Shown here: one piece after another, positions 16,801 to 44,428 of the stretch
How the letters are laid out: the number at the start of each line of letters is the position of its first letter
Numbering within the stretch: the first letter of the stretch is position 1
IMG/VR virus record: IMGVR_UViG_3300009527_000006
Location: 28,026-92,025 of that record
DNA length: 64,000 nt
Source of the DNA: a virus
Strand: one strand, 5' to 3'
Made by a program: the position numbers and the translations under genes
Notes under the pieces: generated by a model
The model's input: the letters and a program-made list of their open reading frames with translations, nothing else
Told to the model about the DNA's origin: nothing
The model's database searches: none

Positions 16801-17754
16801 TTAGATATTAACATCGTCATCATCATCATCATCCAAAATAAAGTCATTAAGACCATCGTCATCACCATCATCATTATCAACAACTCTATTCTGTGTTTGA
16901 GAGCGAGAATTTGTCGAGCTATTAACAGATTCATTGGCAATAGGACCATCCTCCCCAAACCAATACTGGTCAATGAGAGATTTGAGTTCGTCTTCAGACT
17001 TTACCGCAGGAACTAATTCCAAAAGATTGTGAACTGAATTTTCAATCCTCTCGTAATCAGAAGGTGACAAATTATCAACTGCTTTACTGTCAGCAAATTT
17101 TGAAGTAGAATAATTATTCCAATCAGCCTTTGTAGTAACACGGACAATCAGCGACCTTCCTTTAGGTGAAAGATCAAATGCCTTAATTCCTACATCATCT
17201 CCACCTAAAACTTCTTCATCAATAAGTTTCGCTAAATCACTCTTAATTTCACCAGTTTTCTTGTCTATACCAGCAGAATATTTAAGGACAACTACTGTTC
17301 CTATTTTTTGTTGTGCATCAGGATCATCGCCTTCCACTTTGTGCAAGAAGGCATTTACCAATTCATGACGCTGTGGAATCAATTTGTAACTACGCTTCAT
17401 AGCATCTTCATCACCACTCTTTTTGGCTTCACTAAAAAGCTTCCATTGTAGTTTGTTGATGTAATCATTTTTTGCTTGAGTAGGATCTGCATCTGATAGA
17501 GATCTTCCTAGATAAATGTATTCAGAAGGAGTTGTCAACGTCTCAAACCCAATATCTTTATAGTTTACAAAAGTTTGATCATTTCCATCTGAATCTGTGG
17601 AACGCAAAAGTCTTACATAGTATTTGCAATTTTTCTTGAATTTCAAGATTCTTGGATCAGAATTTCCAGACCCTCCACTTTTTTCCTTTTTAAGCTTTTC
17701 TGCTTTTGAATTTCTAATTTTTTCTAATGTTTCTTCTAATGTTGGTTTTCTCAT
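16801..17754 (-). CDS. single-stranded DNA-binding protein (gp32-like)
   Basis: 'DPRILKF..VRLL', 'AFDLSPKG', 'WNNYSTSKF', very acidic C-terminal tail. Confidence 0.8.
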   Translation of the reverse strand: MRKPTLEETLEKIRNSKAEKLKKEKSGGSGNSDPRILKFKKNCKYYVRLLRSTDSDGNDQTFVNYKDIGFETLTTPSEYIYLGRSLSDADPTQAKNDYINKLQWKLFSEAKKSGDEDAMKRSYKLIPQRHELVNAFLHKVEGDDPDAQQKIGTVVVLKYSAGIDKKTGEIKSDLAKLIDEEVLGGDDVGIKAFDLSPKGRSLIVRVTTKADWNNYSTSKFADSKAVDNLSPSDYERIENSVHNLLELVPAVKSEDELKSLIDQYWFGEDGPIANESVNSSTNSRSQTQNRVVDNDDGDDDGLNDFILDDDDDDDVNI

Positions 17755-17810: not shown

Positions 17811-18434
17811 TTATAGTTTATTTGCCAGTATAACCTGATTTATAGTTTTTTTAAGCAATTTACTGGCAGAATATTTTGTATGTAAAAAATTTAATTGATC
17901 TTTCGTATCACCAAGATAAAGCTCATATTCTTCTGGTGGAAGATTAAGAAGTTTGGCAAAACCCTCTAGATAGAAAACGGTATATAGGTTAGTGCTTTTA
18001 TTTTTAAGATGAAGAAGATAATCTGGCTGATGAACAGTAGCATAGTTTAGGTAGTCTGTCAACTTTATTTTCTTTTCTTTACAGAAATCCAGCACAAATT
18101 TTACGCATTCTGTAGTATATCTAATATTATCAGGATGATCGGTATTTTCAGATACTAGTAAGTTTACATAGCTAGAACATACTAGCATACACTTAACTGT
18201 AGAAAAATAATTCAAAGAAAAAAACTTTTTATCTTTATAAATTTTATAGGGTGCGATAAAATATGTTCTTGACATTAGGTGAGGATGTTTTTGAAAAAAC
18301 TTTTCAAGTTTTTCAAGAGCACCCTTTTTAGAATCATCTAATTTTTCATATTTTAGCAAACTTTTACATGGGCGATCATTTGCTTCAGCAAGAGCCTCTA
18401 GGAAAAGATTGTAAATTTTTAATTTATTGTCCAT
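17811..18434 (-). CDS. hypothetical protein (helicase-loader gp59 position)
   Basis: ORF from MDNKLK, overlapping the upstream gene's stop; function by synteny only. Confidence 0.45.
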   Translation of the reverse strand: MDNKLKIYNLFLEALAEANDRPCKSLLKYEKLDDSKKGALEKLEKFFQKHPHLMSRTYFIAPYKIYKDKKFFSLNYFSTVKCMLVCSSYVNLLVSENTDHPDNIRYTTECVKFVLDFCKEKKIKLTDYLNYATVHQPDYLLHLKNKSTNLYTVFYLEGFAKLLNLPPEEYELYLGDTKDQLNFLHTKYSASKLLKKTINQVILANKL

Positions 18435-18888
18435 TGTTGCGACTATACAGAAATTTATCAATATTATCAAGACTTTCAGGACCAACTAGTTCTCCACTTA
18501 TAGCGATAGAATGGCCGTCTTTGAGCAAAGTTACTAATGACTCAACCACATCACTTGATAAAAAATCAAATTTAGCTCCTAGAAAAAATAAATATATTTG
18601 TTCTAAAGTTACAAGACCGTCTTTCCATTTAATATAATAAGAACAGAAATCAGTATATTTTACGAGAATATCTAGATAAGAATAAGCATTACTGTCGTTG
18701 TCTAAAATATTACTACAATCTATATGATCCTGATTTAAAAATTTTTCTTTACTAGAAAGGTAAGTTCCGCAATAATAAACAATTTCAGTATCTTTTGACA
18801 CCGTATTTGTAAAAAATTGTAGCGTTAGTGCAAATGATTCTAACCAAGTATCAAAATCGTAGTCAGGGCAGAGAGTTTTAATTTTCAT
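18424..18888 (-). CDS. hypothetical protein
   Basis: ORF from MKIKTL, just after a TTGACT..TATTCT promoter (18895-18922). Confidence 0.55.
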   Translation of the reverse strand: MKIKTLCPDYDFDTWLESFALTLQFFTNTVSKDTEIVYYCGTYLSSKEKFLNQDHIDCSNILDNDSNAYSYLDILVKYTDFCSYYIKWKDGLVTLEQIYLFFLGAKFDFLSSDVVESLVTLLKDGHSIAISGELVGPESLDNIDKFLYSRNNGQ

Positions 18889-18973
18889 AATAATAGAATA
18901 CAGCACATAATTCAGAAGTCAAGCGCTAAATTCAATCATTTAGATATTTTGAAGACACTACTAAATCACAAGA

Positions 18974-19062
18974 GGCGAACAAAACGGATGCAGACAACGC
19001 TCTATAAGTTGTTTGTCACATTCATAGTCTTTTATTCGCGTGTCTGATCCGAAGCGTTCGGG
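18974..19062 (+). repeat. attC site 1 (type A)
   Basis: GGCGAAC AAAA CGGAT(G)CAGACA(A)CGC...GCG TGTCTG ATCCG AAGC GTTCGGG; two extrahelical bases 6 bp apart. Confidence 0.88.
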
Positions 19063-19088
19063 CAATACGCATCCACACAAAATCACGC

Positions 19089-19529
19089 ATGTATAATAGA
19101 CCGTCTAATTCTGAAGTTGCGGAAATTACTGGATACAATCTTCCTATAGAAGAAATCTCAGAATTTCCCACAGCTAAACAGCAACAAGAAGGAGGTTATA
19201 TTTTGAAGTATATTGGCCGCATCTCAGATACTTGTGATACCTTCTTGAAAACTGCACATGGTAAGGTAGTTGCTATAATATTGCTTATCCATGGAATCAT
19301 CGGATTTGCTAGAGATGCATTTGATGGTGCAACATACATCTATAATGCATCTGCTCCTATGCTTGAAAGGATTGAGACTTTTGTATTTTCTCATAAGAAC
19401 CAAGAAGTCTCTCCCGAATACCTAGTATTGATCCCAAAAGAAACGCACCTGACACTGCCCGTAAAAGATTGGGCTGATTTTCCGGCAGGAACCCAATTTG
19501 CGCCAGCCAGTAGCATAGATTACACATAG
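19089..19529 (+). CDS. cassette 1 forward ORF, membrane-anchored hypothetical
   Basis: Starts ~30 nt after the GTT core; hydrophobic 'VVAIILLIHGIIGF'. Confidence 0.6.
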   Translation: MYNRPSNSEVAEITGYNLPIEEISEFPTAKQQQEGGYILKYIGRISDTCDTFLKTAHGKVVAIILLIHGIIGFARDAFDGATYIYNASAPMLERIETFVFSHKNQEVSPEYLVLIPKETHLTLPVKDWADFPAGTQFAPASSIDYT

Positions 19530-19608
19530 CCAACGATCCAAAATATATAAATGCAAATATTTCACAACAAACCCATACTTTATTCAAATAATTATATTTA
19601 TTAGACAT
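19357..19608 (-). CDS. cassette 1 reverse ORF, small 2-TM protein
   Basis: TATAAATA (19615-19622) 6 nt before ATG; two hydrophobic segments; overlaps the forward ORF. Confidence 0.45.
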   Translation of the reverse strand: MSNKYNYLNKVWVCCEIFAFIYFGSLAMCNLCYWLAQIGFLPENQPNLLRAVSGAFLLGSILGIRERLLGSYEKIQKSQSFQA

Positions 19609-19644
19609 TTTACCTATTTATAAAGACTTTAGACTAAAACAAGA

Positions 19645-19734
19645 CCCGAACAAAGAAACTGGAGACAACAGCTCAGCATAGTTATTCTCCTATATTAGTT
19701 CTGTGTTCGCTGTGTCTCAGTTTAGACGTTCGCC
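19645..19734 (+). repeat. attC site 2 (type B)
   Basis: CCCGAAC AAAG AAACT(G)GAGACA(A)CAGC...GCTG TGTCTC AGTTT AGAC GTTCGCC. Confidence 0.88.
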
Positions 19735-19758
19735 TAACAACACACAGCCTCTACTACA

Positions 19759-20031
19759 ATGTATAAAACTCAGCCTAAATATCGGGCCATCATTCGTTTC
19801 TCCTTGGATAAGGATGAGAGTTCAAAGTTTCGCAACTCTGTTATTAGAAAACTTAGAAAAGCTAAATTCACCAACACAAATAAGACTGGTTCTTGGGAGA
19901 CTCCATCCGCAGATTTATCTATTATTCAGTCATTAGTCTGCACCGTTATGAACGAACTAGGTAAAGTAACGAATGACGACGGAAAGCCCGTAACATTGGA
20001 CCATATGTGGATGTGCATAGATAAAGTTTAA
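19759..20031 (+). CDS. cassette 2 forward ORF, basic 90-aa hypothetical
   Basis: Starts ~30 nt after GTT; stop overlaps the reverse-gene stop (TTAA). Confidence 0.6.
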   Translation: MYKTQPKYRAIIRFSLDKDESSKFRNSVIRKLRKAKFTNTNKTGSWETPSADLSIIQSLVCTVMNELGKVTNDDGKPVTLDHMWMCIDKV

Positions 20032-20198
20032 TCTTCTTCGTTCCACCTAGGGTCATCATCTGACCATTCATTCCATCCAGATTCGATTTCGTCTGAGTCT
20101 GAATTGATAACTATTTTTGTTTTAGATTCAGTATGACACCCACAGTTGCCACATACGCCGCTAATAACGACTTCTATAGGTTGAGAATTATTTTTCAT
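20028..20198 (-). CDS. cassette 2 reverse ORF, 56-aa acidic CxxC peptide (not in ORF track)
   Basis: MKNNSQPIEVVISGVCGNCGCHTES...; ATAAATA at 20206-20212 upstream. Confidence 0.55.
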   Translation of the reverse strand: MKNNSQPIEVVISGVCGNCGCHTESKTKIVINSDSDEIESGWNEWSDDDPRWNEED

Positions 20199-20236
20199 AA
20201 TCAGCTATTTATTGGCAGCTCTTGCTATAAACAAGA

Positions 20237-20325
20237 GGCGAACAAAACGGATGCAGACAACGCTCTATAAGTTTTATGTCACATTCAGAGTTTAGTATTC
20301 GCGTGTCTGATCCGAGACGTTCGTC
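20237..20325 (+). repeat. attC site 3 (type A)
   Basis: Arms near-identical to attC1; ends GTTCGTC. Confidence 0.88.
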
Positions 20326-20912
20326 TTATGAAATGCCACCCAGTGAGTCTGCGCTTTCTTGCCGCTACGGTGGCCGTAGAGCGGGCGTTCTGGCGTGAGT
20401 GCCAGCACTTCGCGGAGCGGGATTTCAGCCTCGCACCATTTGAAGATCATCGTTCCATTCACTTTCAGGACACGGAAGCATTCAGCGAATCCCGCCCGCA
20501 GGTCGTCGCGCCATGTCGCATCCAGAAGCCCGAAGTCGAAGGCGATGCGTCCCGTTGCCCCGGCTCCTTTATGGAAGTGCGGCGGATCGAATACCACATG
20601 CCAGAACGACTCATCAGGGAACGGCATGTTTCGGAAGTCCACCACCATATCAGGCGCGACGGTTTTCGGGGTGCGCCCGATGGTTCCCGGCGTTCCCACG
20701 TCGATGATTCGCGTGCCTTGGCGTTTGTCCACATACAGGGCGCGGTCATCCTGTTTATCGAACCAGAACATTCTGGTTGAGCAGCACGCATCCAATACCG
20801 GAGGCAAAGACGAACAAGTCGCTGCATGCAACCCGCTTTCTGCGTGCTGTTGGCGCGTTAATGTGAAGAGGTCATCCATAGGTGTATCGGTGTATTGTGT
20901 CAGCGGGTGCAT
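20292..20912 (-). CDS. cassette 3: class I SAM-dependent (probably DNA adenine) methyltransferase, GC-rich
   Basis: 'VLDACCSTRMFWFDK', 'DFRNMPFPDESF..VVFDPPH', 'ECFRVLK..FKW'; start lies inside attC4 and stop inside attC3. Confidence 0.85.
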   Translation of the reverse strand: MHPLTQYTDTPMDDLFTLTRQQHAESGLHAATCSSLPPVLDACCSTRMFWFDKQDDRALYVDKRQGTRIIDVGTPGTIGRTPKTVAPDMVVDFRNMPFPDESFWHVVFDPPHFHKGAGATGRIAFDFGLLDATWRDDLRAGFAECFRVLKVNGTMIFKWCEAEIPLREVLALTPERPLYGHRSGKKAQTHWVAFHKTNVSDQTREY

Positions 20913-20928
20913 GAGCTAGGCGTTCGCC
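20809..20928 (+). repeat. attC site 4 (type C, canonical geometry)
   Basis: GACGAAC AAGTC GCT(G)CATGCA(A)CCCGCT...AGCGGG TGCATG AGC TAGGC GTTCGCC. Confidence 0.92.
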
Positions 20929-20937
20929 TAAAAACCA

Positions 20938-21192
20938 ATGCACTCATCACAAACTAATTCGCAGATGATAATCGCGCACATGCTAGCCAATGATAACGGA
21001 GCCATTTTTCATTTTGAGGACTATAGATTCAATGTTCGTCCTGAAGATCGAGTCACTTCCAGCAATTGGCCTAGTGGTATAACATTGCACATTAGACTTT
21101 CTAGCACAGGGCTGAGCGCAGCTTCTTACGAGAACGAGACAGTGCTCGGTGAATATGTGGATGAAAGAGGAACTCCCATTTTGCCTTATTAG
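20938..21192 (+). CDS. cassette 4 forward ORF, 84-aa hypothetical
   Basis: Starts ~10 nt after the R' box; stop overlaps the reverse-gene stop. Confidence 0.55.
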   Translation: MHSSQTNSQMIIAHMLANDNGAIFHFEDYRFNVRPEDRVTSSNWPSGITLHIRLSSTGLSAASYENETVLGEYVDERGTPILPY

Positions 21193-21428
21193 GAATTATT
21201 ACTTGGATCATTCGGAATTGCATGGCCGAATCTCAGCACTTCACCATTGTCATATAGATAGGCCATTCCACGAATTCCAAAAGGACCATTATACTTACCT
21301 TTCTCATTCTGTATTTTTATGTTCTCGTGCATAGTCCATCTTCGCCAGATTCCAATAGCTTCATCATACGGAAGTGCCTCTGGATCTGGGTATTTGGTTA
21401 AGTCTATTGGGTTGTCTAAATTTAACAT
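21189..21428 (-). CDS. cassette 4 reverse ORF, ~79-aa hypothetical
   Basis: TAAGTA box (21438-21443) upstream of ATG 21428. Confidence 0.6.
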   Translation of the reverse strand: MLNLDNPIDLTKYPDPEALPYDEAIGIWRRWTMHENIKIQNEKGKYNGPFGIRGMAYLYDNGEVLRFGHAIPNDPSNNS

Positions 21429-21468
21429 ATTCAAAGCTACTTATTCGTAGTCAAATGCTAAAACAAGA

Positions 21469-21558
21469 GGCGAACAAAGAAACTGGAGACAACAGCTCAG
21501 CATAGCTATTCTCCTATATTAGTTCTGTGTTCGCTGTGTCTCAGTTTAGATGTTCGCC
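21469..21558 (+). repeat. attC site 5 (type B)
   Basis: Nearly identical to attC2; GGCGAAC...GTTCGCC. Confidence 0.88.
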
Positions 21559-21573
21559 CAACCTCACCACACC

Positions 21574-21759
21574 ATGTCTATTATAAAGAAACCTAGTTCG
21601 TGCGTATTTTGCAGATCTGCACTGATTAAAGGTCCGATTAAGAGAGATCGTAATTTAAATGAAACTATTGAAATGAAGAGTGTCGTTTATATTTGTGAGC
21701 AATGTAATTTTGTTCACGAATTTAATATTCATACTACTAAAAAATCTAAGATGAAGTAG
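21574..21759 (+). CDS. cassette 5 forward ORF, zinc-ribbon protein
   Basis: CVFC...CEQC motif pair; AC-rich leader. Confidence 0.65.
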   Translation: MSIIKKPSSCVFCRSALIKGPIKRDRNLNETIEMKSVVYICEQCNFVHEFNIHTTKKSKMK

Positions 21760-21910
21760 TAGACACGAAACATGCAAGCCCATCACATTGAGCATTCCAC
21801 ATTTCATCCAGAATTCTATCATTATTTTCCTGTTCTTCTTTGGAAAGTCTCATCCAATGACACTGCTCCACTTCTAACCATTCACGTATCTTTGCTTTTA
21901 TCCATTGCAT
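21746..21910 (-). CDS. cassette 5 reverse ORF, 54 aa (not in ORF track)
   Basis: MQWIKAKIREWLEVEQCHW...; TAAGTA box 21920-21925 upstream. Confidence 0.55.
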   Translation of the reverse strand: MQWIKAKIREWLEVEQCHWMRLSKEEQENNDRILDEMWNAQCDGLACFVSTTSS

Positions 21911-21949
21911 AGTAGTCAATACTTATGAAGCTAATAAACAGAAACAAGA

Positions 21950-22038
21950 GGCGAACAAAACGGATGCAGACAACGCTCTATAAGTTTTATGTCACATTCA
22001 TAATTTTATATTCGCGTGTCTGATCCGAGACGTTCGGG
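21950..22038 (+). repeat. attC site 6 (type A)
   Basis: Arms identical to attC3; ends GTTCGGG. Confidence 0.88.
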
Positions 22039-22194
22039 TAAAACAGAACATAAACACCACAATGAATGAATCTACGTTAGTTGATTGCGCTAAATGGTTA
22101 TATGAAAAGCAGCAAGAGAACCTAAAAGCCGGAAAGAATCTACTTTGGCAGCCACATATAATAACCGTTCTTTTAAACTTACAAAAATCTAAAG

Positions 22195-23421
22195 TCATAC
22201 TTTTAAGATATAAACTCTCGATTTTTTGTTAAATTCCTGCTTCACAGACGGGCTAACCAAAGTCGTTTCCGACAATGGTGAACTCCCATCTCCACAGGCT
22301 TGAATTCCCGAAGAACTTTCGGTATAAATTTGTTTCAGATTCAAACTCGCATTTAAATCTCTATCTATTTTCATATCACACATTTTACATTCAAATACTC
22401 GGTCTGTCAACTTCAAATCTGAATTTTTCCATCCGCAACATGAACATAATTTAGAACTGGCGTAGAAAGTATCTGCGAAGACAACTTTTCTATTATTCCA
22501 TTTCGCTTTATATTCAATTTGGCGACGAAATTCATAAAGTCCTACGTCACTGATAGCCTGAGCCAAACAGTGATTTTTCAACATATTGCTTACTTTCAAA
22601 TCTTCCAACACAATTACATTGTTTTTCTGTATTATGTTAGAAGTGATTCTATGTAAGCAATCTTTACGAATATTTGATATGTGATAATGTAATTTTGCTA
22701 ACTTTTGTTTTGCTTTTCCATAATTTTTACTTCCTTTTTTCTTTCTTGATAATTGTTTTTGTTTGCGTTTTAGTCTCTTGAGATTTTTCTTTAATGCTTT
22801 TGGATTTTCATAAGTTGTCCCATCTGAGCAAGTAGCTAAAGTTTTAATACCTAAATCAATTCCTACTACCTCATTCTTGGCGTTAGAATGCTCTCTGTCA
22901 GGTGTCTCTACTTGAACTGATACAAACCACTTACCCGCACGTTTCGAGACTGTAGCAGACAGTATTTTACAATCTGTTGGGATGTAATCTTTCTCGGATA
23001 ATTTGAGTTTGTCGATTCGTGGTAGCTTAATGTAATCAGATTCAACTGAAATCGCGCCGTCTAGTCTGAAGGATTGCTTTTCGTTTTTCTTAGATTTAAA
23101 TTTTGGAAATCCTTTCTTACCTTTAACTTTCTTTTTACAACGAGTGAAGAAATTTTGAAATGCTTTATCACAATCTCTTAACGCATTTTGTGGAGAAGTC
23201 TTGCTTGAATTATACATCCAAGGAACATCTGTCTGTTTTAGCTTGTTTAATTCTCTATGAATCTCAATAGCATTTTGAATTTTCTCTTTCTTATCAAATT
23301 GTTCTTTCTTTTTAGCTAATGCCCAATTATATGCCCATCTAGCGCAACCAATATGCTGTAATAACAAGGTTTGTTGCTTGTTATTTACATCTAGCTGAAC
23401 TTTATAGGCGCGGAGAATCAT
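22195..23421 (-). CDS. tnpB: RNA-guided endonuclease TnpB
   Basis: HTH_OrfB N-terminus, RuvC GIDLG / VLEDL / DRDLNAS, zinc finger CSCC..CKMC; all catalytic residues present. Confidence 0.95.
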   Translation of the reverse strand: MILRAYKVQLDVNNKQQTLLLQHIGCARWAYNWALAKKKEQFDKKEKIQNAIEIHRELNKLKQTDVPWMYNSSKTSPQNALRDCDKAFQNFFTRCKKKVKGKKGFPKFKSKKNEKQSFRLDGAISVESDYIKLPRIDKLKLSEKDYIPTDCKILSATVSKRAGKWFVSVQVETPDREHSNAKNEVVGIDLGIKTLATCSDGTTYENPKALKKNLKRLKRKQKQLSRKKKGSKNYGKAKQKLAKLHYHISNIRKDCLHRITSNIIQKNNVIVLEDLKVSNMLKNHCLAQAISDVGLYEFRRQIEYKAKWNNRKVVFADTFYASSKLCSCCGWKNSDLKLTDRVFECKMCDMKIDRDLNASLNLKQIYTESSSGIQACGDGSSPLSETTLVSPSVKQEFNKKSRVYILKV

Positions 23422-24283
23422 TTTAATCTTTCTAAACAAATATCATAATACTCTTTTTCTTTTTCGATGCCGATAAACTGACGATTGAGATTTTTGGCGG
23501 CAACCAGAGTTGTTCCCGAACCAGCAAAAGGATCGAACACCAAATCCTCTTTATTTGAGATAGACTTCACCAAGTCTTCCATCATATTCAACGGTTTTTC
23601 ACATGGATGTTTGTCTTTTCTTTGCGAGACTATTTCATATTCAATTACATCTTCAAATGAAGATAGCGATAACGAATCAAATTTTCGTTTGGATAATTTA
23701 ATACCTAAATCTCCTCTAATTTGGGAAGAAATTTTGGAGATGGAAAGCATCTACCACATTCCCAATTTGATACTTGACCACCATTATTAACGTTTCCATA
23801 AGCACCCAATATTTCAGTAAGCTCTTTTACCGATACCCCCTTAGAAATGCGGGCATTCTTAATGTCATTTGGATAAGAATCTTGTGAAAAATAAATTATT
23901 CTTTCTGATGCTGGATATGGTCGTCTAAGGGAATTTTTATTACACTTATTTTTCCAACCCTCACTCCCCTTATTTGGAAAAGTTTTCTTCCACACAATTT
24001 CAGATTGGAAATTGAAATATTGATTTATCAGGACGGCTAAAAATGGAGCCAATGATGGCTTACAAAAAACGTAACCACTACAAGTATTTTTCATCTTCGG
24101 TTTAAGAATTTTGAAAAAATAATCAAACCATTTTAAAAATTCAGTATCGTTATCATGTTCATTGTCCCAAGTGTGCTTTTTAACATTGTGATAAGGTGGA
24201 TCGGTGACAAGGATATCCACGCTTCCATCTGGAATGTCCTTCATCAATTCTAAACAGTCGCCATGCCAAATTTCTTGTTTCAT
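23418..24283 (-). pseudogene. N6/N4 DNA methyltransferase (beta class) with inserted XRE HTH, frameshifted
   Basis: 'GDCLELMKDIPDGSVD..TDPPY' in 23705-24283; 'HPCEKP..DPFAGSGTT..IGIE' in 23418-23750; one extra T at 23707-23709 joins them (EEILGIKL). Confidence 0.85.
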
Positions 24284-25311
24284 TCCATCGCCTCCTTTTC
24301 TTTCTTTTTACGATTCTGTGAGCTAATCATACCCAATCCTTCTCTAATTAGATACAGGCGACCAGTCGAAGTTTTTAACTCTTTTGCTACGCCTCTCCAA
24401 GTTTGATGTTTATCAAACAAATCGTGCAGTTGTTTTACTGTAATATCTGAACGCTTTTTCCGTAAAATTTGCTGAGATAGACACTCTAAATATAATTCAT
24501 ACTTTCTATCCAAATACACTTTAGCGTTTGAGTATATTGGTCTTAATATGTTTTGAACTAACTCGACCCCCGCCGAAGATATGCAGCAAGTTTCTGAATC
24601 TCCCTCTCCATATTTTGATAGGATTTTTGCGCGACATTTGCTATACGAAAGAATATACTCTTGAAATTTCTCAATAACAAGCCTATTTCCAACAAGATTA
24701 ATTGTCCACACCCAAGATTTTTTATATTTGGGTTCAAGCGTTTTAGAAATGCAGCCATCACCGTCAAATATGCCTCGCCAAAAATGACAGTGTAAATCCT
24801 TTGGAATTAAATTTAACGGAGGAATAAAGCTAAAAGATTTTCTCGGTAAAATACCAAATTTAGCCAAATCATTGCATATTTTTCTGTTACCAATTACAAT
24901 TCGACACGACTCAAATATTTTACTATTATCACCCCCTTCAAAAGAGGGCGAACTTCTACATATTTTAATTGGATGCGCCGAACGGCAAAATTTCTTAAAT
25001 TTTTCTAAGTGCAACAAATCTGACTTTTTTAAACCTATATTCAATCCTCCATAATCGGTTACGTTGCCGTCGGCGGCAATGAATCCAAGCCAATAAGCCT
25101 TATCTTCTGTGTCAATTTTTTCAAAAATAGAATCGTCAATAGTATATTTAGAGTTATTTTTAATTTTGATACCCCTTTTTTTGGCTTCTCTGGTGCAGCA
25201 TTCGCTACTTAATCCGTAAACAGCCGCCGCCCTTTGTGCAGAATCCCCGTTTACATATAGATTAATCATTCCGTCCTTTTCTTCTTGTGTAATAGTGCGT
25301 CTCATATACAT
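24280..25311 (-). CDS. free-standing LAGLIDADG homing endonuclease
   Basis: 'KAYWLGFIAADG' and 'HFWRGIFDGDG' motifs; HTH-like termini. Confidence 0.9.
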   Translation of the reverse strand: MYMRRTITQEEKDGMINLYVNGDSAQRAAAVYGLSSECCTREAKKRGIKIKNNSKYTIDDSIFEKIDTEDKAYWLGFIAADGNVTDYGGLNIGLKKSDLLHLEKFKKFCRSAHPIKICRSSPSFEGGDNSKIFESCRIVIGNRKICNDLAKFGILPRKSFSFIPPLNLIPKDLHCHFWRGIFDGDGCISKTLEPKYKKSWVWTINLVGNRLVIEKFQEYILSYSKCRAKILSKYGEGDSETCCISSAGVELVQNILRPIYSNAKVYLDRKYELYLECLSQQILRKKRSDITVKQLHDLFDKHQTWRGVAKELKTSTGRLYLIREGLGMISSQNRKKKEKEAME

Positions 25312-25327
25312 ATATTTACACTAAAAA

Positions 25328-25888
25328 TCACTCTTTTTCACAAAAATCTGATAAAACTTCATCATCGGGATAGATTTCTGTAGTCACCTCTTCCACCTTT
25401 TCAATTCTAACTCCATAGGAATTAAAATAAGACAAAAGATAATTAAAACAAAATCTTGATAATCTATCTTTATGCTCAATTAAGACTACATCAATTTCTT
25501 TCTTTTCTACTAACTCAAAAAGTTTCTGCAATTTCTTGCGATTGTCGTTCATTCCTGAACCAACTTCATCAAAAACAGCAACAATAGAATAACCACGCTT
25601 CAATGCCTCTGTAGTCATTCTGCCGACTTGTCTTTCTAAATCACCTTTAGTCTTCTGTTCATGTGAACTAACGCGACAATAGATAGCCACACGCTTACCA
25701 TCTGTTACTTTAACAGGTTCTACATAGATTCCCGCCAATTTCTCAATATCGGCTCTGTAATAGCGTCTATGACCACCTTTTGTATGGAATGGCGTTAATT
25801 TGCCTTCTCGCTCCCAATTTCTAAGAGTTTCGTCGGAAACGCCTAAAATGGACGCAGCATCACTAATTGATAGAATCTTTTTATCCAT
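25328..25888 (-). CDS. tnpA: IS607 transposase TnpA (MerR HTH + serine resolvase), C-terminally disrupted
   Basis: 'TLRNWEREG..TKGGHRRY', 'IYCRVSS..DLERQ', 'EHKDRLSRF'; usual C-terminal helix missing. Confidence 0.9.
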   Translation of the reverse strand: MDKKILSISDAASILGVSDETLRNWEREGKLTPFHTKGGHRRYYRADIEKLAGIYVEPVKVTDGKRVAIYCRVSSHEQKTKGDLERQVGRMTTEALKRGYSIVAVFDEVGSGMNDNRKKLQKLFELVEKKEIDVVLIEHKDRLSRFCFNYLLSYFNSYGVRIEKVEEVTTEIYPDDEVLSDFCEKE

Positions 25889-26057
25889 TTTTGTCTATCA
25901 ATCCTTTCTGTTGAAACAACCTAAACCATTCGTCATAGATTCGTTGAAATTCCTCTACGGTTGGAACTTCATCTAATTCAAACGGAATATCATGGATAAC
26001 TCCATCATCGGTTTCAAATTCTGTTGCTGTAACTCTTGTAATCATTTTTGGCTTCAT
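25881..26057 (-). CDS. 58-aa ORF at IS left end (not in ORF track)
   Basis: MKPKMITRVTATEFETDDG...VPTVEEFQRIYDEW; overlaps the tnpA start; TAAATA box upstream. Confidence 0.6.
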   Translation of the reverse strand: MKPKMITRVTATEFETDDGVIHDIPFELDEVPTVEEFQRIYDEWFRLFQQKGLIDKNG

Positions 26058-26248
26058 ATATATTTACACTAAAAGTTTAGATTTTCTACGAAAAAAGTGA
26101 AAATATTTTAACTTTCTTTAGATATTTTAGATTATCGGGCAACTGTTGTCAACCCTCGGAAAGTTGTGGTTACTATTTGTTTCCTGTTTTGCGATATTAT
26201 CCACTGCTCTGATCACCGAGTTTATAAAACAAGATGGGTATAAGTTGT

Positions 26249-26503
26249 TTAAGTCCAGCCTAAATAATGAACACACAAAAGCATCGGAACCACCCCCATC
26301 ACAAACAACAAAACACATAAAATAATCAACCATCCTAATGCCATGAAGAGGCATTCTACAAAAGCCTTAAACTCACCATCAAACCCGAACAAAACGGATG
26401 CAGGCAACACCTCTGGGCTGTCTGTCGTATTATTCATAGTATTTTCGTTCGGTGTGCCTGATCCGAGACGTTCGCCTTCTGCTAATTTAGTTTGTTTTTT
26501 CAT
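26249..26503 (-). CDS. cassette 6 reverse ORF, membrane peptide read through attC7
   Basis: ATAAATA 26511-26517 before ATG 26503; second in-frame ATG (26437) inside attC7; hydrophobic C-half. Confidence 0.5.
   Translation of the reverse strand: MKKQTKLAEGERLGSGTPNENTMNNTTDSPEVLPASVLFGFDGEFKAFVECLFMALGWLIILCVLLFVMGVVPMLLCVHYLGWT
26384..26476 (+). repeat. attC site 7 (type A variant)
   Basis: CCCGAAC AAAA CGGAT(G)CAGGCA(A)CACC...GGTG TGCCTG ATCCG AGAC GTTCGCC; compensatory changes relative to attC1. Confidence 0.88.
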
Positions 26504-26671
26504 CAAAAGCTATTTATGAAATAATATTATTAATTCAACCAGCATAATAATAACCATGTTTAACTACCTAAAGACTAGCTTGTGTCAATTTTGTAAAGGA
26601 ACCACTGACCCATCCACAAAGAAAGAGATTTAAACTCTTCATTTGAGATAAAGTGTGTTATTTATATTTTT

Positions 26672-26763
26672 GAGGCTCTATAAGTTTTATGTCACATTCA
26701 TAGCTTAGAACTCACTATGTCTCAGCGTAAACTTACCATTCATGTCTGCGCTAGGCGTTTGCC
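26672..26763 (+). repeat. decayed attC site 8
   Basis: Type A loop 'GCTCTATAAGTTTTATGTCACATTCATA' with left arm deleted; right arm TGTCTGCGCTAGGCGTTTGCC. Confidence 0.65.
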
Positions 26764-26782
26764 TTAACTGCATAATGTTCAA

Positions 26783-27109: not shown

Positions 27110-28465
27110 TTAGGTTGTCATAAATTCTTCCATCGAGAATTTCTTTTTCAATATACTTGACCTAGAATCTTCATATGATTGCTCAGTATCTTCTTCTTCA
27201 AAAAATCTCAGTGTGCTATAATCAATATTCAAGTATCCCCCGCCATTGAGAGCACCGTCTCTAGATTTCTTACCCTTAACTAATACTCTGTTAAGTTCAC
27301 GGTCTTCATCTGTTTGTGACATGACTGTAAGATTATCAAAATCGCCTAGCATTGAATATGAACCAGCCATATTATCCAAGTCAGCAGAATTATTTCGATG
27401 TCCGTCTCTATTGAGTTGTGCAGGAGTTAATAGAGGGCATTCAAAAATATAACTGAGCCCTCTTACTTCTTGAGTAATATACTGAAATTCGTCGTGCTTA
27501 GGAACATTGCTTTTTGTAGATTTACATAGAGTAATATAATCCAGTATTATCACCGATGGTTTGAAATTTTTCTTTCTTTCTAATTTTTTAATAAAGGATT
27601 TAATGTTAGTAGGAGTCACTGATTTAGCCGCGAACTCTTTGATTACTAATCTAGAAGTTTTATCAGAAATAAAATCATCCACATACTCTCTATACTCTAA
27701 TAGCCTGTCTCCTATTTCTCCTAGAGCAATACCCGTTAACATACCAGAAATTCTACGAGCATATCTTTTTTCACTCATTTCTAAAGTTATAATTACTACA
27801 TCCTCATTCTGTCTGAGAATGTTAGTTCCAATGTTTCCCACCAAAAGTGATTTTCCGACATTAGTGGAGCCAGCTACGCCATATATTGCTCGCCCTTCTT
27901 TAAACATTCCTCCACCAAATGCTTCATCCACTATCTTATATCCGGTGCTTAGAAAAACATCCTTTTCAGTTAAAATAGATTCTACCCTACTTCTTTCGGC
28001 AAAATATTCCAACCCTAGATTATCTACTAATGAAATATTAGATATAGTTTCTTGTTCAGTTTGAAAATCATCTAAATCTATTTCTTGTTTTTCTGTCTTA
28101 TCATCAATAGCCTTTTCTAGAAGATTTTCTGTTTTTCTCTGCTTTATAAAATACTCTGCATTAGCAAGCAATTCGTCTTCATTACATTCATCCGCAATAT
28201 TTTCATTTTTTATAAGATCAATCGCTTTTTTAAGATGTTCTTTATTTTTAGTAGTATTAAACCGGGTTTTTAATTCTGTAAAATTAGGAACTGCGGACCT
28301 TTCTACATAAAAATCTTTAATAGTCTGTGCTATTGCAGAGAAGTTTTCGTTTTTGAAAATATCTGCTCCAATATATTCTATGCAAGAACCTAGTAATATT
28401 CCATCTTTTTTGAGAAGATTCTTCATAAGAATCTTCTCAAAAAAATCTAAATCAATTTTGCTCAT
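27110..28465 (-). CDS. DnaB-like replicative helicase (gp41)
   Basis: Walker A 'GSTNVGKS', 'ITLEMSE', 'IILDYI', 'AQLNR', 'KSRDG'. Confidence 0.92.
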   Translation of the reverse strand: MSKIDLDFFEKILMKNLLKKDGILLGSCIEYIGADIFKNENFSAIAQTIKDFYVERSAVPNFTELKTRFNTTKNKEHLKKAIDLIKNENIADECNEDELLANAEYFIKQRKTENLLEKAIDDKTEKQEIDLDDFQTEQETISNISLVDNLGLEYFAERSRVESILTEKDVFLSTGYKIVDEAFGGGMFKEGRAIYGVAGSTNVGKSLLVGNIGTNILRQNEDVVIITLEMSEKRYARRISGMLTGIALGEIGDRLLEYREYVDDFISDKTSRLVIKEFAAKSVTPTNIKSFIKKLERKKNFKPSVIILDYITLCKSTKSNVPKHDEFQYITQEVRGLSYIFECPLLTPAQLNRDGHRNNSADLDNMAGSYSMLGDFDNLTVMSQTDEDRELNRVLVKGKKSRDGALNGGGYLNIDYSTLRFFEEEDTEQSYEDSRSSILKKKFSMEEFMTT

Positions 28466-28474
28466 ATGTATTTG

Positions 28475-28768
28475 CTAGACTATAGCATATGTAACCTCTA
28501 ACAGTCTAGAAGAATCTTTAGATAGGTATTTCATTTCTACCCATTTTTCAAAATAATCTCCGGTAACTTGATCTTCCAGTTCGGTAGGCTGGTCAGTATA
28601 AAAATTACCGCTTTTATATAATTTATATAATTGTCCAGCAGTGACTACTAATTTTGCCCCATTAGCATCTACTGTTTCTATAGCAGGGGTAGATTCATCA
28701 ATATGAAAATATTGAATCTTAGGTTTGTCTACAAACATCGAAGTCTTTTTTATTGTGACACGAATCAT
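28475..28768 (-). CDS. hypothetical protein
   Basis: 97-aa ORF coupled to uvsX (4-nt overlap). Confidence 0.55.
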   Translation of the reverse strand: MIRVTIKKTSMFVDKPKIQYFHIDESTPAIETVDANGAKLVVTAGQLYKLYKSGNFYTDQPTELEDQVTGDYFEKWVEMKYLSKDSSRLLEVTYAIV

Positions 28769-29784
28769 ACGTTATCTGGATTTAATGCAAACATCTTATT
28801 GCACATAGTTTTGAAAGACGCATCTTCTACTAGTGATTGCATAAGATTATCAGTTTCTTCTAGCTCTTTGCGTCTAAAAACTTTGTCATTGCCAATGAGT
28901 TTATACCATCCTTGCTTTTCTGAATAGATATGTTTAGTTTCAAGTGCAAGGTCAAATATTCCAGAGTATTTAGAAATTCCATCATCAAAACTAACGGTTA
29001 CTGGAAAATCGGATTTTTCTCTGACATATCTAGAAAATTTTGATTTCAATACAAAATCAAATCCAGTCAATTCAGAATCAACCTTCTTTTGTCGTTTTCC
29101 AATATTCCACAACGTATGTCCAGCATATTCTGCCCCTCTTCCTCCAGAAGCCTTTTCTTCAGGAAACATGTCCATTGTTTGGTAGCTATGATTAATTACT
29201 ATACAAGTAATGCCCTTGAAATTTATCTGTCCATTAGCAATTCGGAATACAGATTTCAACGCCTTTGCTCTAGTGAAATCAGCTTTATCATTTTCGTTCT
29301 TTGCATCCTCTACTTCTTTCGCACTGGCTAACATACCAATACTATCGACGCAAATAAGAACCTTATCACCGACTTCTATATCAGTAACTAAATTAGCCAA
29401 ATCACTCTTCCACTGTTCTACAGTAAAAATAGGTCTTCTGTCAAAATTTTCACCCGGACGAATATCTATTCCTACTCCTTCAAAATATGAATTAGGTGAG
29501 CCGAACTCCGAATCATAAAAAATGATGAGATTATCTTGGTCCTTATACTTCCTTTGGAACGACTTCATTGCTTGAATCATTAGATTAGTTTTGAAGTGCT
29601 TTGGTGGAGCAGCAATCATAACTATCCCAGCCGGAAGACCTTTATCGAAAGATCCTGATATTGCTAAATTAAGAATAGGAACATCAAAAGGTATAAAATT
29701 TTCAGATTCCCAATAATTAGATTTCTCTAATATTTTTTTATCAATTACAGTATTGGCACGAAGTTTATCAAAAAGTTTTGACAT
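28765..29784 (-). CDS. uvsX: RecA-like recombinase
   Basis: 'AAPPKHFKT', 'FYDSEFG', 'DSIGMLAS.KEVEDA..ADFTRAK', 'SGGRG'. Confidence 0.93.
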   Translation of the reverse strand: MSKLFDKLRANTVIDKKILEKSNYWESENFIPFDVPILNLAISGSFDKGLPAGIVMIAAPPKHFKTNLMIQAMKSFQRKYKDQDNLIIFYDSEFGSPNSYFEGVGIDIRPGENFDRRPIFTVEQWKSDLANLVTDIEVGDKVLICVDSIGMLASAKEVEDAKNENDKADFTRAKALKSVFRIANGQINFKGITCIVINHSYQTMDMFPEEKASGGRGAEYAGHTLWNIGKRQKKVDSELTGFDFVLKSKFSRYVREKSDFPVTVSFDDGISKYSGIFDLALETKHIYSEKQGWYKLIGNDKVFRRKELEETDNLMQSLVEDASFKTMCNKMFALNPDNV

Positions 29785-30214: not shown

Positions 30215-30520
30215 TTATGCAAGAAAATAATCTTCTTTCTTTAGAGAATCTTGTCTATCATACTCTTGCCTAACACCTATTTTGAAATTCATTACTAAAT
30301 TATCTTTTTCAAATTGCTCTCTTTGAACTGCTTTTATAAGTTTAGTAACATCATTAGAATACAATCTATACAATTCTTGCTTAGAAATCCACCGACCCTC
30401 AGAAAAATCATCAGATATAATTTCTATATCACGATTTTCAAAAACACTCTGATACGATCTATATAATTCAGCAGAGTATTTGTTTTTAATACTTAAAAAT
30501 TTCTGATATAGGTGCTTCAT
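30215..30520 (-). CDS. hypothetical protein
   Basis: 101-aa ORF overlapping the polymerase end. Confidence 0.45.
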   Translation of the reverse strand: MKHLYQKFLSIKNKYSAELYRSYQSVFENRDIEIISDDFSEGRWISKQELYRLYSNDVTKLIKAVQREQFEKDNLVMNFKIGVRQEYDRQDSLKKEDYFLA

Positions 30521-33044
30521 ATTGAAAATCTGGATCTGGTAATTCCCAATTTATTGCTTCATAAATAGGCTTCAGACAGCTATTTACAGATTTATCAAAC
30601 ATAGTTCTATAATCTATAGATAAATTAAATTCTACTGGAAATTTGTCAATAAAAGCAATACCTTCAATACCATATCCATTCTTCTCAACATGAATAAGTT
30701 TTATTTTTTGCCCGTCCTCAATTTTTGCATAAACATTCTGTAAACCATTTTTATCAATAAGAGCATTATAATGCAGTGACCATTTTGCATGTCTTTGGCA
30801 TCCTAATTCAGTATATATACCATCAGAATGTTTCCATTTATGTAAAATTTTCATACTGCTCCTAAGAGCAATTTTATCTATGGCCATACTTTGATAATTA
30901 TTATAAGCATCTACATAAAGCATATCACATTCATTTTTAGAATATCCTGACATGATATTCTTAACAATATTCTTTGCAATGTCCTTAACTTCATCAGAAT
31001 ATATAGATTTGACCAAAGCTATTCCAGAGTATTTTATTTTATTAGTCTTTTTCCCTTCGTTGTTTATTACGTTCAATATATAATGTTTCTTTTTAAGCCA
31101 TATCGCTCTTGTGCAGATGGCCTCTCTCTTAAACTCAATTCTAGGATCTTTGGAATTGAGTTTATTGCGCATCAACTCGCTCAAACGTCCATTCACTGTA
31201 GTAACAATTTGTTTTTCGAATTTAGAAAAATCTTCTGTAAGATTTCCTTCAGAATCAGCTATTTTTAAGTTAGTCAATTTAATAACTTTATCTAAAGAGA
31301 TATACTGGCTATCAGTATCTCCAGCAATAATATGGTCATCATTAGAATTGCAATATTGATTAAGAACCTCATTTATTATTCGTTCACTATTCTTTATGAT
31401 AAACTGACCTGTGGTAGTTATAGAACTGGCACAATCAATATCATACAAGCAGAAAAATCTATTAGCAAAAACACCATAGGTAGAATTTAATAGAATTTTA
31501 TACAAATACTGTTCAGTGTCTAATCTAGCAATAAGGTCATATTCTTTACTTCCACTAGTTTCTAGCTCTAACATTGTGCCCTTAACAAATTTTCTCTTTT
31601 GGTATAAGTCATCAATAAATTTAGAACAAATACTTTTTTCTTTCTGATCAAAAAGAACTCCGCACGATGATATAGACCACCCCTTTTTCGATACGTATTC
31701 TAACAACTGGTCATCTTCCAATTTAATAGTCCTTTCAGAACCATGTAAAAGATGAACTATAGAATGTCCATCATCTGTTTTAGTGACCTGTCCGCGTTTA
31801 CTCTCTGGAGATATATTAAGGGTGATAATAATATTAGGATATAGGCTGTTAATGTCTAAGCTCATGACATTGTCATACATGCCCGGAACAGGGACTTTCA
31901 CATAACCTCCTGCTATTTTTTCTTTTTCAACATCATCGTCAAATCTTGTTAAAAGTATTTTATTTTCTAGATATGCTTGTTTAGCCAATACTCCTGTAAT
32001 AATAGGAACTTTGCTCATTGCTCGGTCAACATTACAGAAACCATAAAATGCAGAGAATTTGGCCACGTCTAAGTATCTTCTTTTATTATCTATAAGAAGC
32101 AGCAGGTGCGTATCCCAAATGTTATAATTAATAAACTTGTTCCAGTTTTTTTCCGAAAGAGATTGCAGAGATTCACCAGAATAGTCTAATTTTCCTTGAC
32201 CTACTTCTAACTTAGAAATAAAATCAAGTGCAAAGCTCTCTTTTTCACCCGGATTATATGTCTTATACAATTGCATATAATCAATGTGTGAAAATCCGCC
32301 AAAAGTGTATTCTTTATACCTTTTCTGAAAGCTGTCCACTACATCTCTTGCATATATGTTATCTACTGGGGATAGTTTTGCAGAAAGACCTTCTTTGAGT
32401 TTTTCCAATCTTCCTACAATATAAGGAACATCAAAGCTAGCAGAGTTCCATCCAACTAAAACATCTGGATAGTTTCGTCTCCAGAACTTGACGAAACTTT
32501 TCAGCAACAACAATTCAGTAGGACAGTAATAGTATTCTATCTTCTCAGAATCTACACCTTTAATATCATCAAATGCGGTCCATTTATCATAAGGTTTTAT
32601 TCCCCATACATAATATTTTTCAGTTTTTGAATCATATATAGTAATGGATGTTATCGGAAATTTACTAGTAATAGGGTCTGGAAATTCATCTGCAATGACC
32701 TCTATGTCAAAATAGAATATACGAAGTTTGTTTTTGGTCAATTCATCTATGCTAGAAGAATGGTATTTCTCTAATAAAAATTGCTGTGTTGGAGGAAGAT
32801 TTAGATAAACCTCCCCACGATAAGATTTTACAAAATTTTTACGCTCTTTTTCGTTGAAGAATTCTCTACGCACCAAACCCTGACCATCAATGCCAAATGC
32901 TTCATCATTTTTACCTTTAGGTGTCTTAATATACAAGAAAGGTCTGAAATTATATTCATATTTTGCAGATTCCTCATTTTCATCATATGCCCATAGATGA
33001 ATTTTGCTATTTTTATGATCGTAGTAACAATTACGGTAAGCCAT
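30486..33044 (-). CDS. family B DNA polymerase (gp43)
   Basis: Exo 'FDIEV', 'GWNSASFDVPY', 'YNIWD'; pol 'SLDINSLYP', 'KILLNSTYG', 'AGDTDS'. Confidence 0.97.
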   Translation of the reverse strand: MAYRNCYYDHKNSKIHLWAYDENEESAKYEYNFRPFLYIKTPKGKNDEAFGIDGQGLVRREFFNEKERKNFVKSYRGEVYLNLPPTQQFLLEKYHSSSIDELTKNKLRIFYFDIEVIADEFPDPITSKFPITSITIYDSKTEKYYVWGIKPYDKWTAFDDIKGVDSEKIEYYYCPTELLLLKSFVKFWRRNYPDVLVGWNSASFDVPYIVGRLEKLKEGLSAKLSPVDNIYARDVVDSFQKRYKEYTFGGFSHIDYMQLYKTYNPGEKESFALDFISKLEVGQGKLDYSGESLQSLSEKNWNKFINYNIWDTHLLLLIDNKRRYLDVAKFSAFYGFCNVDRAMSKVPIITGVLAKQAYLENKILLTRFDDDVEKEKIAGGYVKVPVPGMYDNVMSLDINSLYPNIIITLNISPESKRGQVTKTDDGHSIVHLLHGSERTIKLEDDQLLEYVSKKGWSISSCGVLFDQKEKSICSKFIDDLYQKRKFVKGTMLELETSGSKEYDLIARLDTEQYLYKILLNSTYGVFANRFFCLYDIDCASSITTTGQFIIKNSERIINEVLNQYCNSNDDHIIAGDTDSQYISLDKVIKLTNLKIADSEGNLTEDFSKFEKQIVTTVNGRLSELMRNKLNSKDPRIEFKREAICTRAIWLKKKHYILNVINNEGKKTNKIKYSGIALVKSIYSDEVKDIAKNIVKNIMSGYSKNECDMLYVDAYNNYQSMAIDKIALRSSMKILHKWKHSDGIYTELGCQRHAKWSLHYNALIDKNGLQNVYAKIEDGQKIKLIHVEKNGYGIEGIAFIDKFPVEFNLSIDYRTMFDKSVNSCLKPIYEAINWELPDPDFQYEAPISEIFKY

Positions 33045-43728: not shown

Positions 43729-44428
43729 ACATTATCTTCTGTCTCCTCACGTTCTTCCATGATTCTGAAGCATAAACTTTTTCATACATTTCTTCCTGAA
43801 AACGCTTATGAGTATCAGTTCTTTTATTTTCATCTTTAATTCTGTTAATAAAACAATTCCAGCATATTCTAGAATAAAAACCGAAAGGATTGTTTTTGAA
43901 CACCACTAGTTCATTTCCATCTTCATCAAATTCTAATGAATCTTCTTCTCCAAGAATTTTAATTACAGATACTAATTTTTTATTTCGCATCTTTTCAAAT
44001 TTAACAGTTGTCCTGCCATCCGATTCATCCACGTGCTTCAACAGAACCTTTCCTCTAGTATTAAGAGAGAACAACTGTTCTTTAACAGCCTTGAACATTT
44101 TAATCTTAGCATCTCCAACCATTTCTTCTAGCCACGAATACTGATTGAAATTTCCCAATCTTTTCATATTTTCAGGAATATCACTTATCATTTTTGCTAA
44201 TTTTTCAGTAATATAAGAATCTGGATTTTTTTCACATAAATCATAGTATTCCTTAAAGGCCAACCACATATCATCTTTATTGATATATTCATTGGTCTTT
44301 TTATCTTTTTTTTCTTTTCTTTTTCTAGTCGGTCTTTCAGAAAGATCAAGAAGTTCTTCTATAGATTCATCACTATCTATTATACTTTCATCTAAGTCAA
44401 TATATTCGGGTTCAAAGTCGTCTTTCAT
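43691..44428 (-). CDS. late-transcription sigma factor (gp55-like)
   Basis: 'YINKDD', 'NFNQYSWLEEMVGDA', 'NPFGFYSRICWNCFINRIKDENK'; adjacent to gp47. Confidence 0.85.
   Translation of the reverse strand: MKDDFEPEYIDLDESIIDSDESIEELLDLSERPTRKRKEKKDKKTNEYINKDDMWLAFKEYYDLCEKNPDSYITEKLAKMISDIPENMKRLGNFNQYSWLEEMVGDAKIKMFKAVKEQLFSLNTRGKVLLKHVDESDGRTTVKFEKMRNKKLVSVIKILGEEDSLEFDEDGNELVVFKNNPFGFYSRICWNCFINRIKDENKRTDTHKRFQEEMYEKVYASESWKNVRRQKIMYDDDVSCENNEE

Follow-up and report, generated by a model that had tools for sequence, protein, structure and literature searches.

An integrase-less cluster of Verrucomicrobiota-type attC sites in a T4-like phage, with a putative late promoter box at a fixed distance from four of the sites

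Integron cassettes are usually seen as bacterial cargo that lacks promoters and that phages do no more than transport, and the origin of these cassettes is an open question in the field. The late promoters of phage T4 consist of the element TATAAATA and depend on gp55, gp33, and gp45. Two components of the arrangement described below are already known, each published separately: clusters of attC sites in virulent phages and promoters borne by cassettes. The former were reported by Qi et al. (2023) (PMC9892861), who also describe methyltransferase cassettes and, between some of the sites, several open reading frames (ORFs); the latter are known from bacterial integrons, in the cmlA, qac, qnrVC, and toxin-antitoxin cassettes (PMC8876359). 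In addition, the PeSL cassettes of T4-type phages are orphan genes bordered by a repeat of ~100 nt that consists of a promoter and a stem-loop, and their authors compared these cassettes with integrons (Arbiol et al. 2010, PMC2839356). Here, we describe an array of attC sites in a 64,000-nt stretch of viral DNA (positions 28,026 to 92,025 of the IMG/VR record IMGVR_UViG_3300009527_000006), in which four cassettes carry, close to an attC site and read on the bottom strand, the hexamer TAA[A/G]TA (TAARTA), a box of the phage late type. This stretch, hereafter the window, makes up the right-hand 64 kb of a 92-kb record with an estimated completeness of 35% and a GC content of 32.7%, and the phage itself is uncultured, T4-like, and of 33% GC. 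No published account was found of a phage late-type box fixed beside attC sites.

Like the phages of Qi et al., this lytic-type phage carries several attC sites, a methyltransferase cassette, and multi-ORF cassettes, and no integrase was found; an exchange with bacterial integrons was implied for those phages too (PMC9892861). In contrast, the attC family of our phage can be tied to the chromosomal integrons of one host phylum, and four of its cassettes have a phage late-type box at a fixed offset from the attC, an arrangement that the section of that paper used here does not describe. Cassette-borne promoters offer a second comparison, as such an internal promoter frees expression from the distance to Pc; those promoters, however, are of the host sigma-70 type and lie mostly in the 5' untranslated region of top-strand genes (PMC8876359), whereas the box described here is a phage late-type, -10-only element that is attC-proximal and precedes a bottom-strand gene. 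The likeness to PeSL cassettes lies in small orphan genes situated in a variable region of a T4-type phage and in indels between relatives that end in repeats. PeSLs recombine by homology and contain early sigma-70 promoters along with Shine-Dalgarno sites (PMC2839356); in the present array, an integron attC, with its R and L boxes and extrahelical bases, forms the stem-loop, the box is of the late type, a Shine-Dalgarno site is lacking, and one indel ends at the integron crossover. The arrangement works like PeSL but is not a member of that class. Compared with the late promoters of T4, the box is likewise an A/T-rich -10 element without a -35 element before structural genes, in a phage that encodes a gp55 homologue; it differs in that its core has six bases and lies 4–10 nt from the ATG, implying leaderless or near-leaderless mRNAs.

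The array spans positions 18976–26765 in the replication module of the phage. It comprises seven attC sites and one remnant, all on the plus strand and without an integrase match, and is thus an integrase-less attC cluster of the kind termed CALIN (cluster of attC sites lacking an integrase). A tyrosine recombinase (PF00589) had no match in the 92-kb record, which is ~35% complete, so that an integrase elsewhere in the phage is possible. A structural scan and folding identified three sites of type A, attC1 (18976–19062), attC3 (20239–20325), and attC6 (21952–22038), two sites of type B, attC2 (19647–19734) and attC5 (21471–21558), and attC7 (26386–26476), which is near the bacterial consensus and has no box in its 5' flank. 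The attC of the GC-rich cassette 3 (20811–20926), recognized by its fold, is of another subtype whose geometry is the same (an R box of 5 bp and a spacer, then 3 bp and 6 bp, each followed by a bulge), and an equivalent arrangement is present in a bacterial locus (L195). At the right end of the array, direct reading revealed a decayed remnant (26650–26765) that retains a type-A loop and an R'-like end and has lost its 5' arm. The shared architecture is a CGAAC/GTTCG R box, an unpaired spacer of 4–5 nt, an L stem whose 5' arm, on the plus strand, has two extra bases separated by 6 bp, and a variable loop. In the folds, the 5-bp R box and the 4- to 5-nt spacer were followed by 3–5 bp, a bulge, 6 bp, a second bulge, and 3–6 bp, which is the imperfect L''/L' stem with two extrahelical bases of an integron attC. 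The differences between the type A and type B stems were compensatory. Inverted GGCGAAC...GTTCGCC cores, corresponding to the R'' and R' boxes of integrons, were present in seven of seven sites; the fourth position of R' is a C and not a purine, off the consensus RYYYAAC/GTTRRRY, and bacterial members of the family deviate in the same way. The structural scan returned 103 matches, with 16 distinct paired stem combinations, in 1.45 Mb of examined DNA versus none in a reversed control, and in the phage it found just the array sites, all on the plus strand. The orientation taken from bacterial arrays agreed with the arm that carries the extra bases; the minus strand as the true attC top strand was ruled out by the long ORFs and the IntI orientation in those arrays.

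A degenerate pattern of the 5' arm of these hairpins matched ~30 GC-rich IMG/VR contigs and many bacterial contigs, and the structurally validated attCs in bacterial genome contigs were all in Verrucomicrobiota records, including Verrucomicrobiaceae, Prosthecobacter, Luteolibacter, Akkermansiaceae, and Chthoniobacteraceae. The bacterial arrays held up to 13 attC copies in 8 kb, and each of their cassettes had one long top-strand ORF that starts 10–25 nt past R' and stops ~25 nt before R''. IntI (TIGR02249) scored above its family cut-off in three of the four attC-carrying Verrucomicrobiota genomes tested. Arrays adjoined the integrase in some genomes (L181 and L182), where IntI lies on the minus strand and the attCs then follow on the plus strand, which is the canonical layout. 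Moreover, the type-A attCs of the window matched attCs in 76 of 145 Verrucomicrobiaceae genomes. On the basis of family structure, IntI association, and these genome matches, the phage repeats are therefore integron attC sites of the Verrucomicrobiota chromosomal-integron family.

Two further observations concern this family outside the phage. The ~30 GC-rich (49–61%) viral contigs (L006, L010, L014, L033, L051, and others) carry one or two family attCs each, and their genes run on the attC bottom strand; phages that presumably infect Verrucomicrobiota often carry attCs of this family. In the Verrucomicrobiota arrays (L167, L060, L062, L179, and others), ATGA stands at a modal distance of 24 nt before CGAAC, with positions in a 3-nt periodicity (18, 21, 24, 27, and 30), and two top-strand frames are open over the full length of the 91-nt attC. 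In L179, a frame that begins at this ATG crosses the attC and extends to a TAATG, which overlaps the start of the next cassette. This pattern hints that the bacterial attC might be translated as a small coupling ORF.

The initial annotation of the window had proposed a fixed bottom-strand module in cassettes 1, 2, 4, and 5, and a pattern search recovered it with the boxes at the same positions: TCTTGTTT-N16/17-TAARTA-N6-9-ATG occurred exactly four times in the 64 kb, always on the minus strand, and had no match in 100 dinucleotide-preserving shuffles. Module 1 (19606–19644) consists of the flank TCTTGTTT, a 16-nt spacer, TATAAATA (box 19615–19620), 6 nt, and an ATG at 19608–19606. In module 2 (20196–20236), the flank is followed by a 17-nt spacer, AATAAATA (box 20206–20211), 7 nt, and the ATG of a 56-aa ORF; in module 3 (21426–21468), by a 17-nt spacer, AATAAGTA (box 21438–21443), 9 nt, and the ATG of a 79-aa ORF; and in module 4 (21908–21949), by a 16-nt spacer, CATAAGTA (box 21920–21925), 9 nt, and the ATG of a 54-aa ORF. 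In every module, TCTTGTTT directly adjoins an attC-like hairpin at its R'' end, and the distance from the box to the CGAAC core of R'' is 26–27 nt. Because the four flank-to-box spacers are mutually unalignable, the modules are not simple duplicates. A fifth box of the same subtype (CATAAATAGCT, 7 nt, ATG; 26501–26516, minus strand, box 26511–26516) stands without an adjoining attC flank. A decayed copy had also been suggested before attC1; the flank indeed survives there as TCTTGTGA (18966–18973), but no box stands at N16/17. The nearest box-like sequence, TAAATG, lies 23 nt from this flank with no ORF behind it, and the gene to the left of attC1 (18424–18888) has a sigma-70-type promoter (TTGACT-N16-TATTCT) instead.

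The same box recurs across the phage genome. In the last 20 nt before the predicted starts of the 92-kb record, TAAATA was enriched 38-fold and TAAGTA 24-fold, and 41 boxes stood 4–10 nt before 120 predicted starts, compared with 0.67 expected; the core TAA[A/G]TA is invariant by the selection of these cases. The box precedes the genes for the major head protein, the tail sheath, and head closure, and box-bearing genes made up 35 of 73 in the two structural regions versus 2 of 31 in the replication/transcription region (Fisher p = 3e-5), which agrees with the proposal that the cassettes share the box of the structural genes. Most box-bearing genes stayed unnamed in PHROG searches. In the 37 non-cassette cases, the 35 nt upstream of the box carried no information; the box therefore resembles a -10-only element like the late promoters of T4, and it likewise stands before virion genes and only rarely before replication genes. 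The gp55-like late sigma factor that the initial annotation had pointed to is indeed encoded, at 43691–44428 on the minus strand (PHROG 234, E = 3.2e-16).

We then considered the ORFs behind the boxes, using a codon score trained on the long genes of the phage and 56 spurious control ORFs. Cassettes 2, 4, and 5 each contain a convergent pair that tiles the space exactly, made of a top-strand ORF in bacterial-style layout and a bottom-strand ORF behind the box. In cassette 2, a 90-aa top-strand ORF (19759–20031) with one relative at 75% identity converges with the 56-aa bottom-strand ORF (20028–20198), whose codon score of 0.45 was above all 56 controls. In cassette 4, the pair is an 84-aa top-strand ORF (20938–21192; score 0.16) and the 79-aa bottom-strand ORF (21189–21428; score 0.29), the protein of which was called on four contigs. 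In cassette 5, a top-strand ORF of 61–69 aa with a CxxC...CxxC motif (21550–21759) meets the 54-aa bottom-strand ORF (21746–21910; score 0.30). These three bottom-strand scores were at or above the top 2% of the spurious ORFs, and the top-strand partners scored 0.14–0.18; the bottom-strand ORFs (0.29–0.45) thus use phage-like codons. No box or sigma-70 match precedes the top-strand cassette ORFs. Cassette 1 has a 146-aa top-strand ORF (19089–19529; score 0.27) with one distant homologue (E = 1.8e-10), and the minus-strand ORF behind its box (19357–19608) is doubtful, with a spurious-like codon score. The ORF behind the fifth box (26249–26503) runs back through attC7, and its sole tblastn matches were translated attC; it is probably not a gene.

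From these results we favor, with moderate confidence, the reading that the array is an integrase-less attC cluster with hairpins of the Verrucomicrobiota family, in which four AT-rich cassettes carry a phage late-type box that drives small bottom-strand genes. According to this reading, the boxes would act as -10-only late promoters read by the host RNA polymerase together with the gp55-like factor, the bottom-strand gene would be transcribed late in infection into an mRNA with little or no leader, its expression would not depend on its place in the array, and the IntI of the host would move the cassettes in trans. Promoter activity, gp55 dependence, position-independent expression, and the use of IntI in trans are predictions from the DNA sequence. 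Several points weigh against the reading. The full T4-type octamer is present in module 1 only, the fourth box position is a G in two of the four modules, and a -10-only promoter does not account for the 16/17-nt spacing between flank and box. Because PhoH-like and exonuclease genes also stand behind the box, its "late" class is an association with gene type and not a measurement. The bottom-strand ORFs are without homologues (that at 21189–21428 has none beyond itself), and the support for them as genes comes from codon usage, tiling, and gene calls; the ORF at 19357–19608 has no homologue either, is not among the called proteins of the protein collection, and overlaps the better-supported top-strand gene of cassette 1 by 173 nt. 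Finally, the findings come from one phage lineage. A wider proposal is that T4-like Verrucomicrobiota phages keep their own pool of two-faced cassettes, each with a top-strand gene arranged for expression from the bacterial integron and, at a set distance from the attC, a phage late promoter that precedes a bottom-strand gene, so that one unit, built or remodelled in phage genomes and shuffled by host IntI during infection, would be readable in both hosts; we regard this as conceivable but unlikely.

The flank TCTTGTTT had been taken as part of the phage promoter, and this was not borne out. On the top strand it reads AAACAAGA, directly before the R'' box, and 85 attCs outside the window have the flank consensus CAACCAAGG(G/C). 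CAAG stood 1–3 nt before CGAAC in 32 of these 85 bacterial or GC-rich attCs versus ~2 in shuffles, and AACAAGAGG-CGAAC was present in a GC-rich metagenome array; a metagenome scan for the phage-type flank plus an attC returned only one array, L179, which is GC-rich and of bacterial type. TCTTGTTT is an inherited 5' attC flank and neither a -35 element nor a phage addition. The 16/17-nt spacing may then be a fixed border between the cargo and an attC unit that includes the ~25-nt flank, and bacterial cassette ORFs likewise stop at a modal 24 nt before CGAAC; alternatively, the attC flank may contribute as a weak -35. A two-part sigma-70 promoter, with TTGTTT of the flank as -35 and TAARTA as -10, would be served by the host polymerase alone, either early or both early and late. 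Such a promoter would explain why the spacing is fixed in four cassettes with unrelated spacers, and the early genes of the phage do have CTTGAC-N17-TAtagT at 5–11 nt before the ATG, with a CTTG that the flank shares. However, TAAATA and TAAGTA end in A and thus lack the T of the last -10 position (A at 2, T at 6), the four modules are missing from the output of a sigma-70 consensus scan, the same hexamer stands without a -35 before 37 other genes, and the CTTG derives from bacterial attC flanks, which lack a -10 partner. We therefore consider this alternative quite unlikely. The flank also resembles the MotA box TGCTTtA. The middle promoters of T4 need a TAnnnT -10 element, which the boxes lack, and a MotA reading was set aside on this ground, with no search for MotA itself.

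A second alternative treats TAARTA as a translation-start or mRNA-processing signal of an organism without Shine-Dalgarno sites; the cassette ORFs would then have the box merely as a consequence of being translated in this phage. Its position 4–10 nt from the start codons would suit such a role, and only 4 of 120 genes have a Shine-Dalgarno-like motif. A general signal of this kind should also be carried by the replication genes, yet these have it in 2 of 31 cases versus 35 of 73 elsewhere; the early genes have sigma-70-type -10 boxes at the same distance instead, and the box resembles the T4 late octamer in a phage with a gp55 homologue. This explanation is improbable. The early promoters and late boxes both end 4–11 nt before the ATG (e.g., at the genes 28765–29784, 30486–33044, and 50444–51067); because the promoters end so close to the ATG and Shine-Dalgarno motifs are nearly absent, the mRNAs of the phage may be leaderless or near-leaderless throughout.

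The modules could also be relics of one ancestral cassette end that was copied together with its attC, in which case their likeness would reflect repeat homology and not selection and would carry no information on expression or origin. The longer string TAARTAGCT is common to the boxes of modules 2 and 3 and the box at 26511–26516, a G follows the box in only 1 of the 37 other boxes of the genome, and the flanking attCs are close repeats. Against this stand the spacers and the ORFs behind the boxes, which are unalignable, the presence of the module on attCs of both types A and B, and the open frame that follows each box and tiles exactly against a convergent ORF. In our view it is very improbable that copying alone produced the modules.

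Whether the cassettes are adapted to the phage or were captured from the host was addressed by comparison with attCs of the same family elsewhere. The absence of the box from bacterial cassettes had been named beforehand as a check, and TAYTTA was found within 60 nt in 0 of 81 attC flanks of the family outside the window; by a rough composition estimate, ~1.6 boxes would be expected in these 81 GC-rich flanks, so the module is absent from them and avoidance is not implied. The AT-rich cassettes have 37–44% GC, whereas the 60 nt upstream of the foreign attCs average 54%. No DNA match to these cassettes was obtained in the 145 Verrucomicrobiaceae genomes, where the ORFs at 19759–20031 and 21189–21428 also had no protein match; the cassette 3 protein, which served as a control, had matches in 3 of the 145. 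That all cassettes are bacterial and passively captured from a host integron, with the boxes arising by chance in AT-rich DNA, is very unlikely, for although the attC family is bacterial and IntI-associated, cassette 3 clearly comes from the host pool, and the top-strand ORFs have the bacterial-cassette layout, the chance expectation for four boxes at one fixed offset is near zero, and the foreign flanks and host-family genomes lack the box and the AT-rich cassettes, respectively.

Cassette 3 differs from its neighbours. It carries a methyltransferase-like ORF (20292–20912, minus strand) of 57% GC with a DPPH motif and no box, which matched Pfam Methyltransf_11 below the cut-off. L195 holds a relative in the same reversed layout, overlapping an attC, relatives stand beside attCs in GC-rich viral contigs, and homologues occur in L044 and L037. 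The ATG of the cassette 3 ORF (20912–20910) lies within the 3' arm of the attC of that cassette, and the stop codon (20292–20294) within attC3; the relatives of this ORF in the bacterial locus L195 and the viral locus L044 overlap an attC likewise. The ORF could be transcribed by read-through from the late box of cassette 4.

Contigs from metagenomes gave evidence on cassette exchange. In a contig of another freshwater metagenome (run X2), cassette 4 lies directly after a type-A attC with which only CGTTCG is shared. Cassette 3 is thus absent precisely at the expected integron crossover (CG|TTCG), which is consistent with recombination by IntI at G|TT of R'; the attC half of this contig may be another type-A site. 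In a further metagenome contig, a 59-nt stretch of shared attC links cassette 2 directly to cassette 6. The candidate joints 19723->26466 (with a 21-letter side) and 22990->26093 (a diverged TnpB copy) were rejected, as they were too weak or had no bearing on cassette exchange. In the probable source run, each module was assembled on the same contig as the beginning of its attC, and cassettes 3 and 4 likewise shared a contig; the adjacencies of the array are thus not assembly artefacts. The array is mixed, with at least one recent host-type cassette, four phage-adapted cassettes, and one cassette broken by an IS607-like element. The claim of the initial annotation that the cassettes are phage-native therefore needs narrowing: the description as phage-adapted is supported for the four box-bearing cassettes and does not extend to the whole array, as cassette 3 has 57% GC, no box, and bacterial relatives, and the attCs are of the host type. 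The four cassettes would have been shaped inside phages. Their significance for the origin of integron cassettes lies in the combination of host-type attCs with a signal that is meaningful only in a phage; phages would accordingly seem to shape cassettes, to express them, and to swap accessory genes via the recombination system of the host, and the GC-rich methyltransferase cassette beside them represents traffic from the host pool.

The surroundings of the array are those of a T4-like replication module. A gp32-like single-stranded DNA-binding protein (16801–17754) and a gp41-type helicase (27110–28465) are encoded on either side, and UvsX, the gp43 polymerase, and an SbcC/gp46-like protein are also encoded in the window; the major head protein, tail sheath, large terminase, and RNA ligase lie to the left of it. 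A megablast search with 18400–23500 against the phage collection gave no match, and no relatives of the top-strand ORF of cassette 2 or of the gp41-like helicase were found in IMG/VR.

Cassette 6 is interrupted by the IS607-like insertion (22165–26125, minus strand), which was recognized by Pfam matches. It encodes, all on the minus strand, TnpB (22195–23421), an N6_N4 DNA methylase split in two frames (23418–23750 and 23705–24283), a LAGLIDADG-type protein (24280–25311), and a MerR-type serine recombinase (25328–25888), and it also holds a 58-aa ORF. Contigs in three metagenome runs end or diverge at 22164 and 26098; therefore, copies of the element exist in other contexts, as do relatives without the insertion. 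Two identical AGTGTAAATATAT boxes on the minus strand (25313–25318 and 26061–26066) precede the LAGLIDADG gene and the 58-aa ORF, and thus the IS607-like cargo also has the phage late-type box. In addition, a near-consensus sigma-70 promoter (TTGACA-17-TAAAAT, 11 of 12 positions; 22382–22410, minus strand) lies inside the 3' part of tnpB and points to the end of the element, where it might drive the guide RNA of TnpB.

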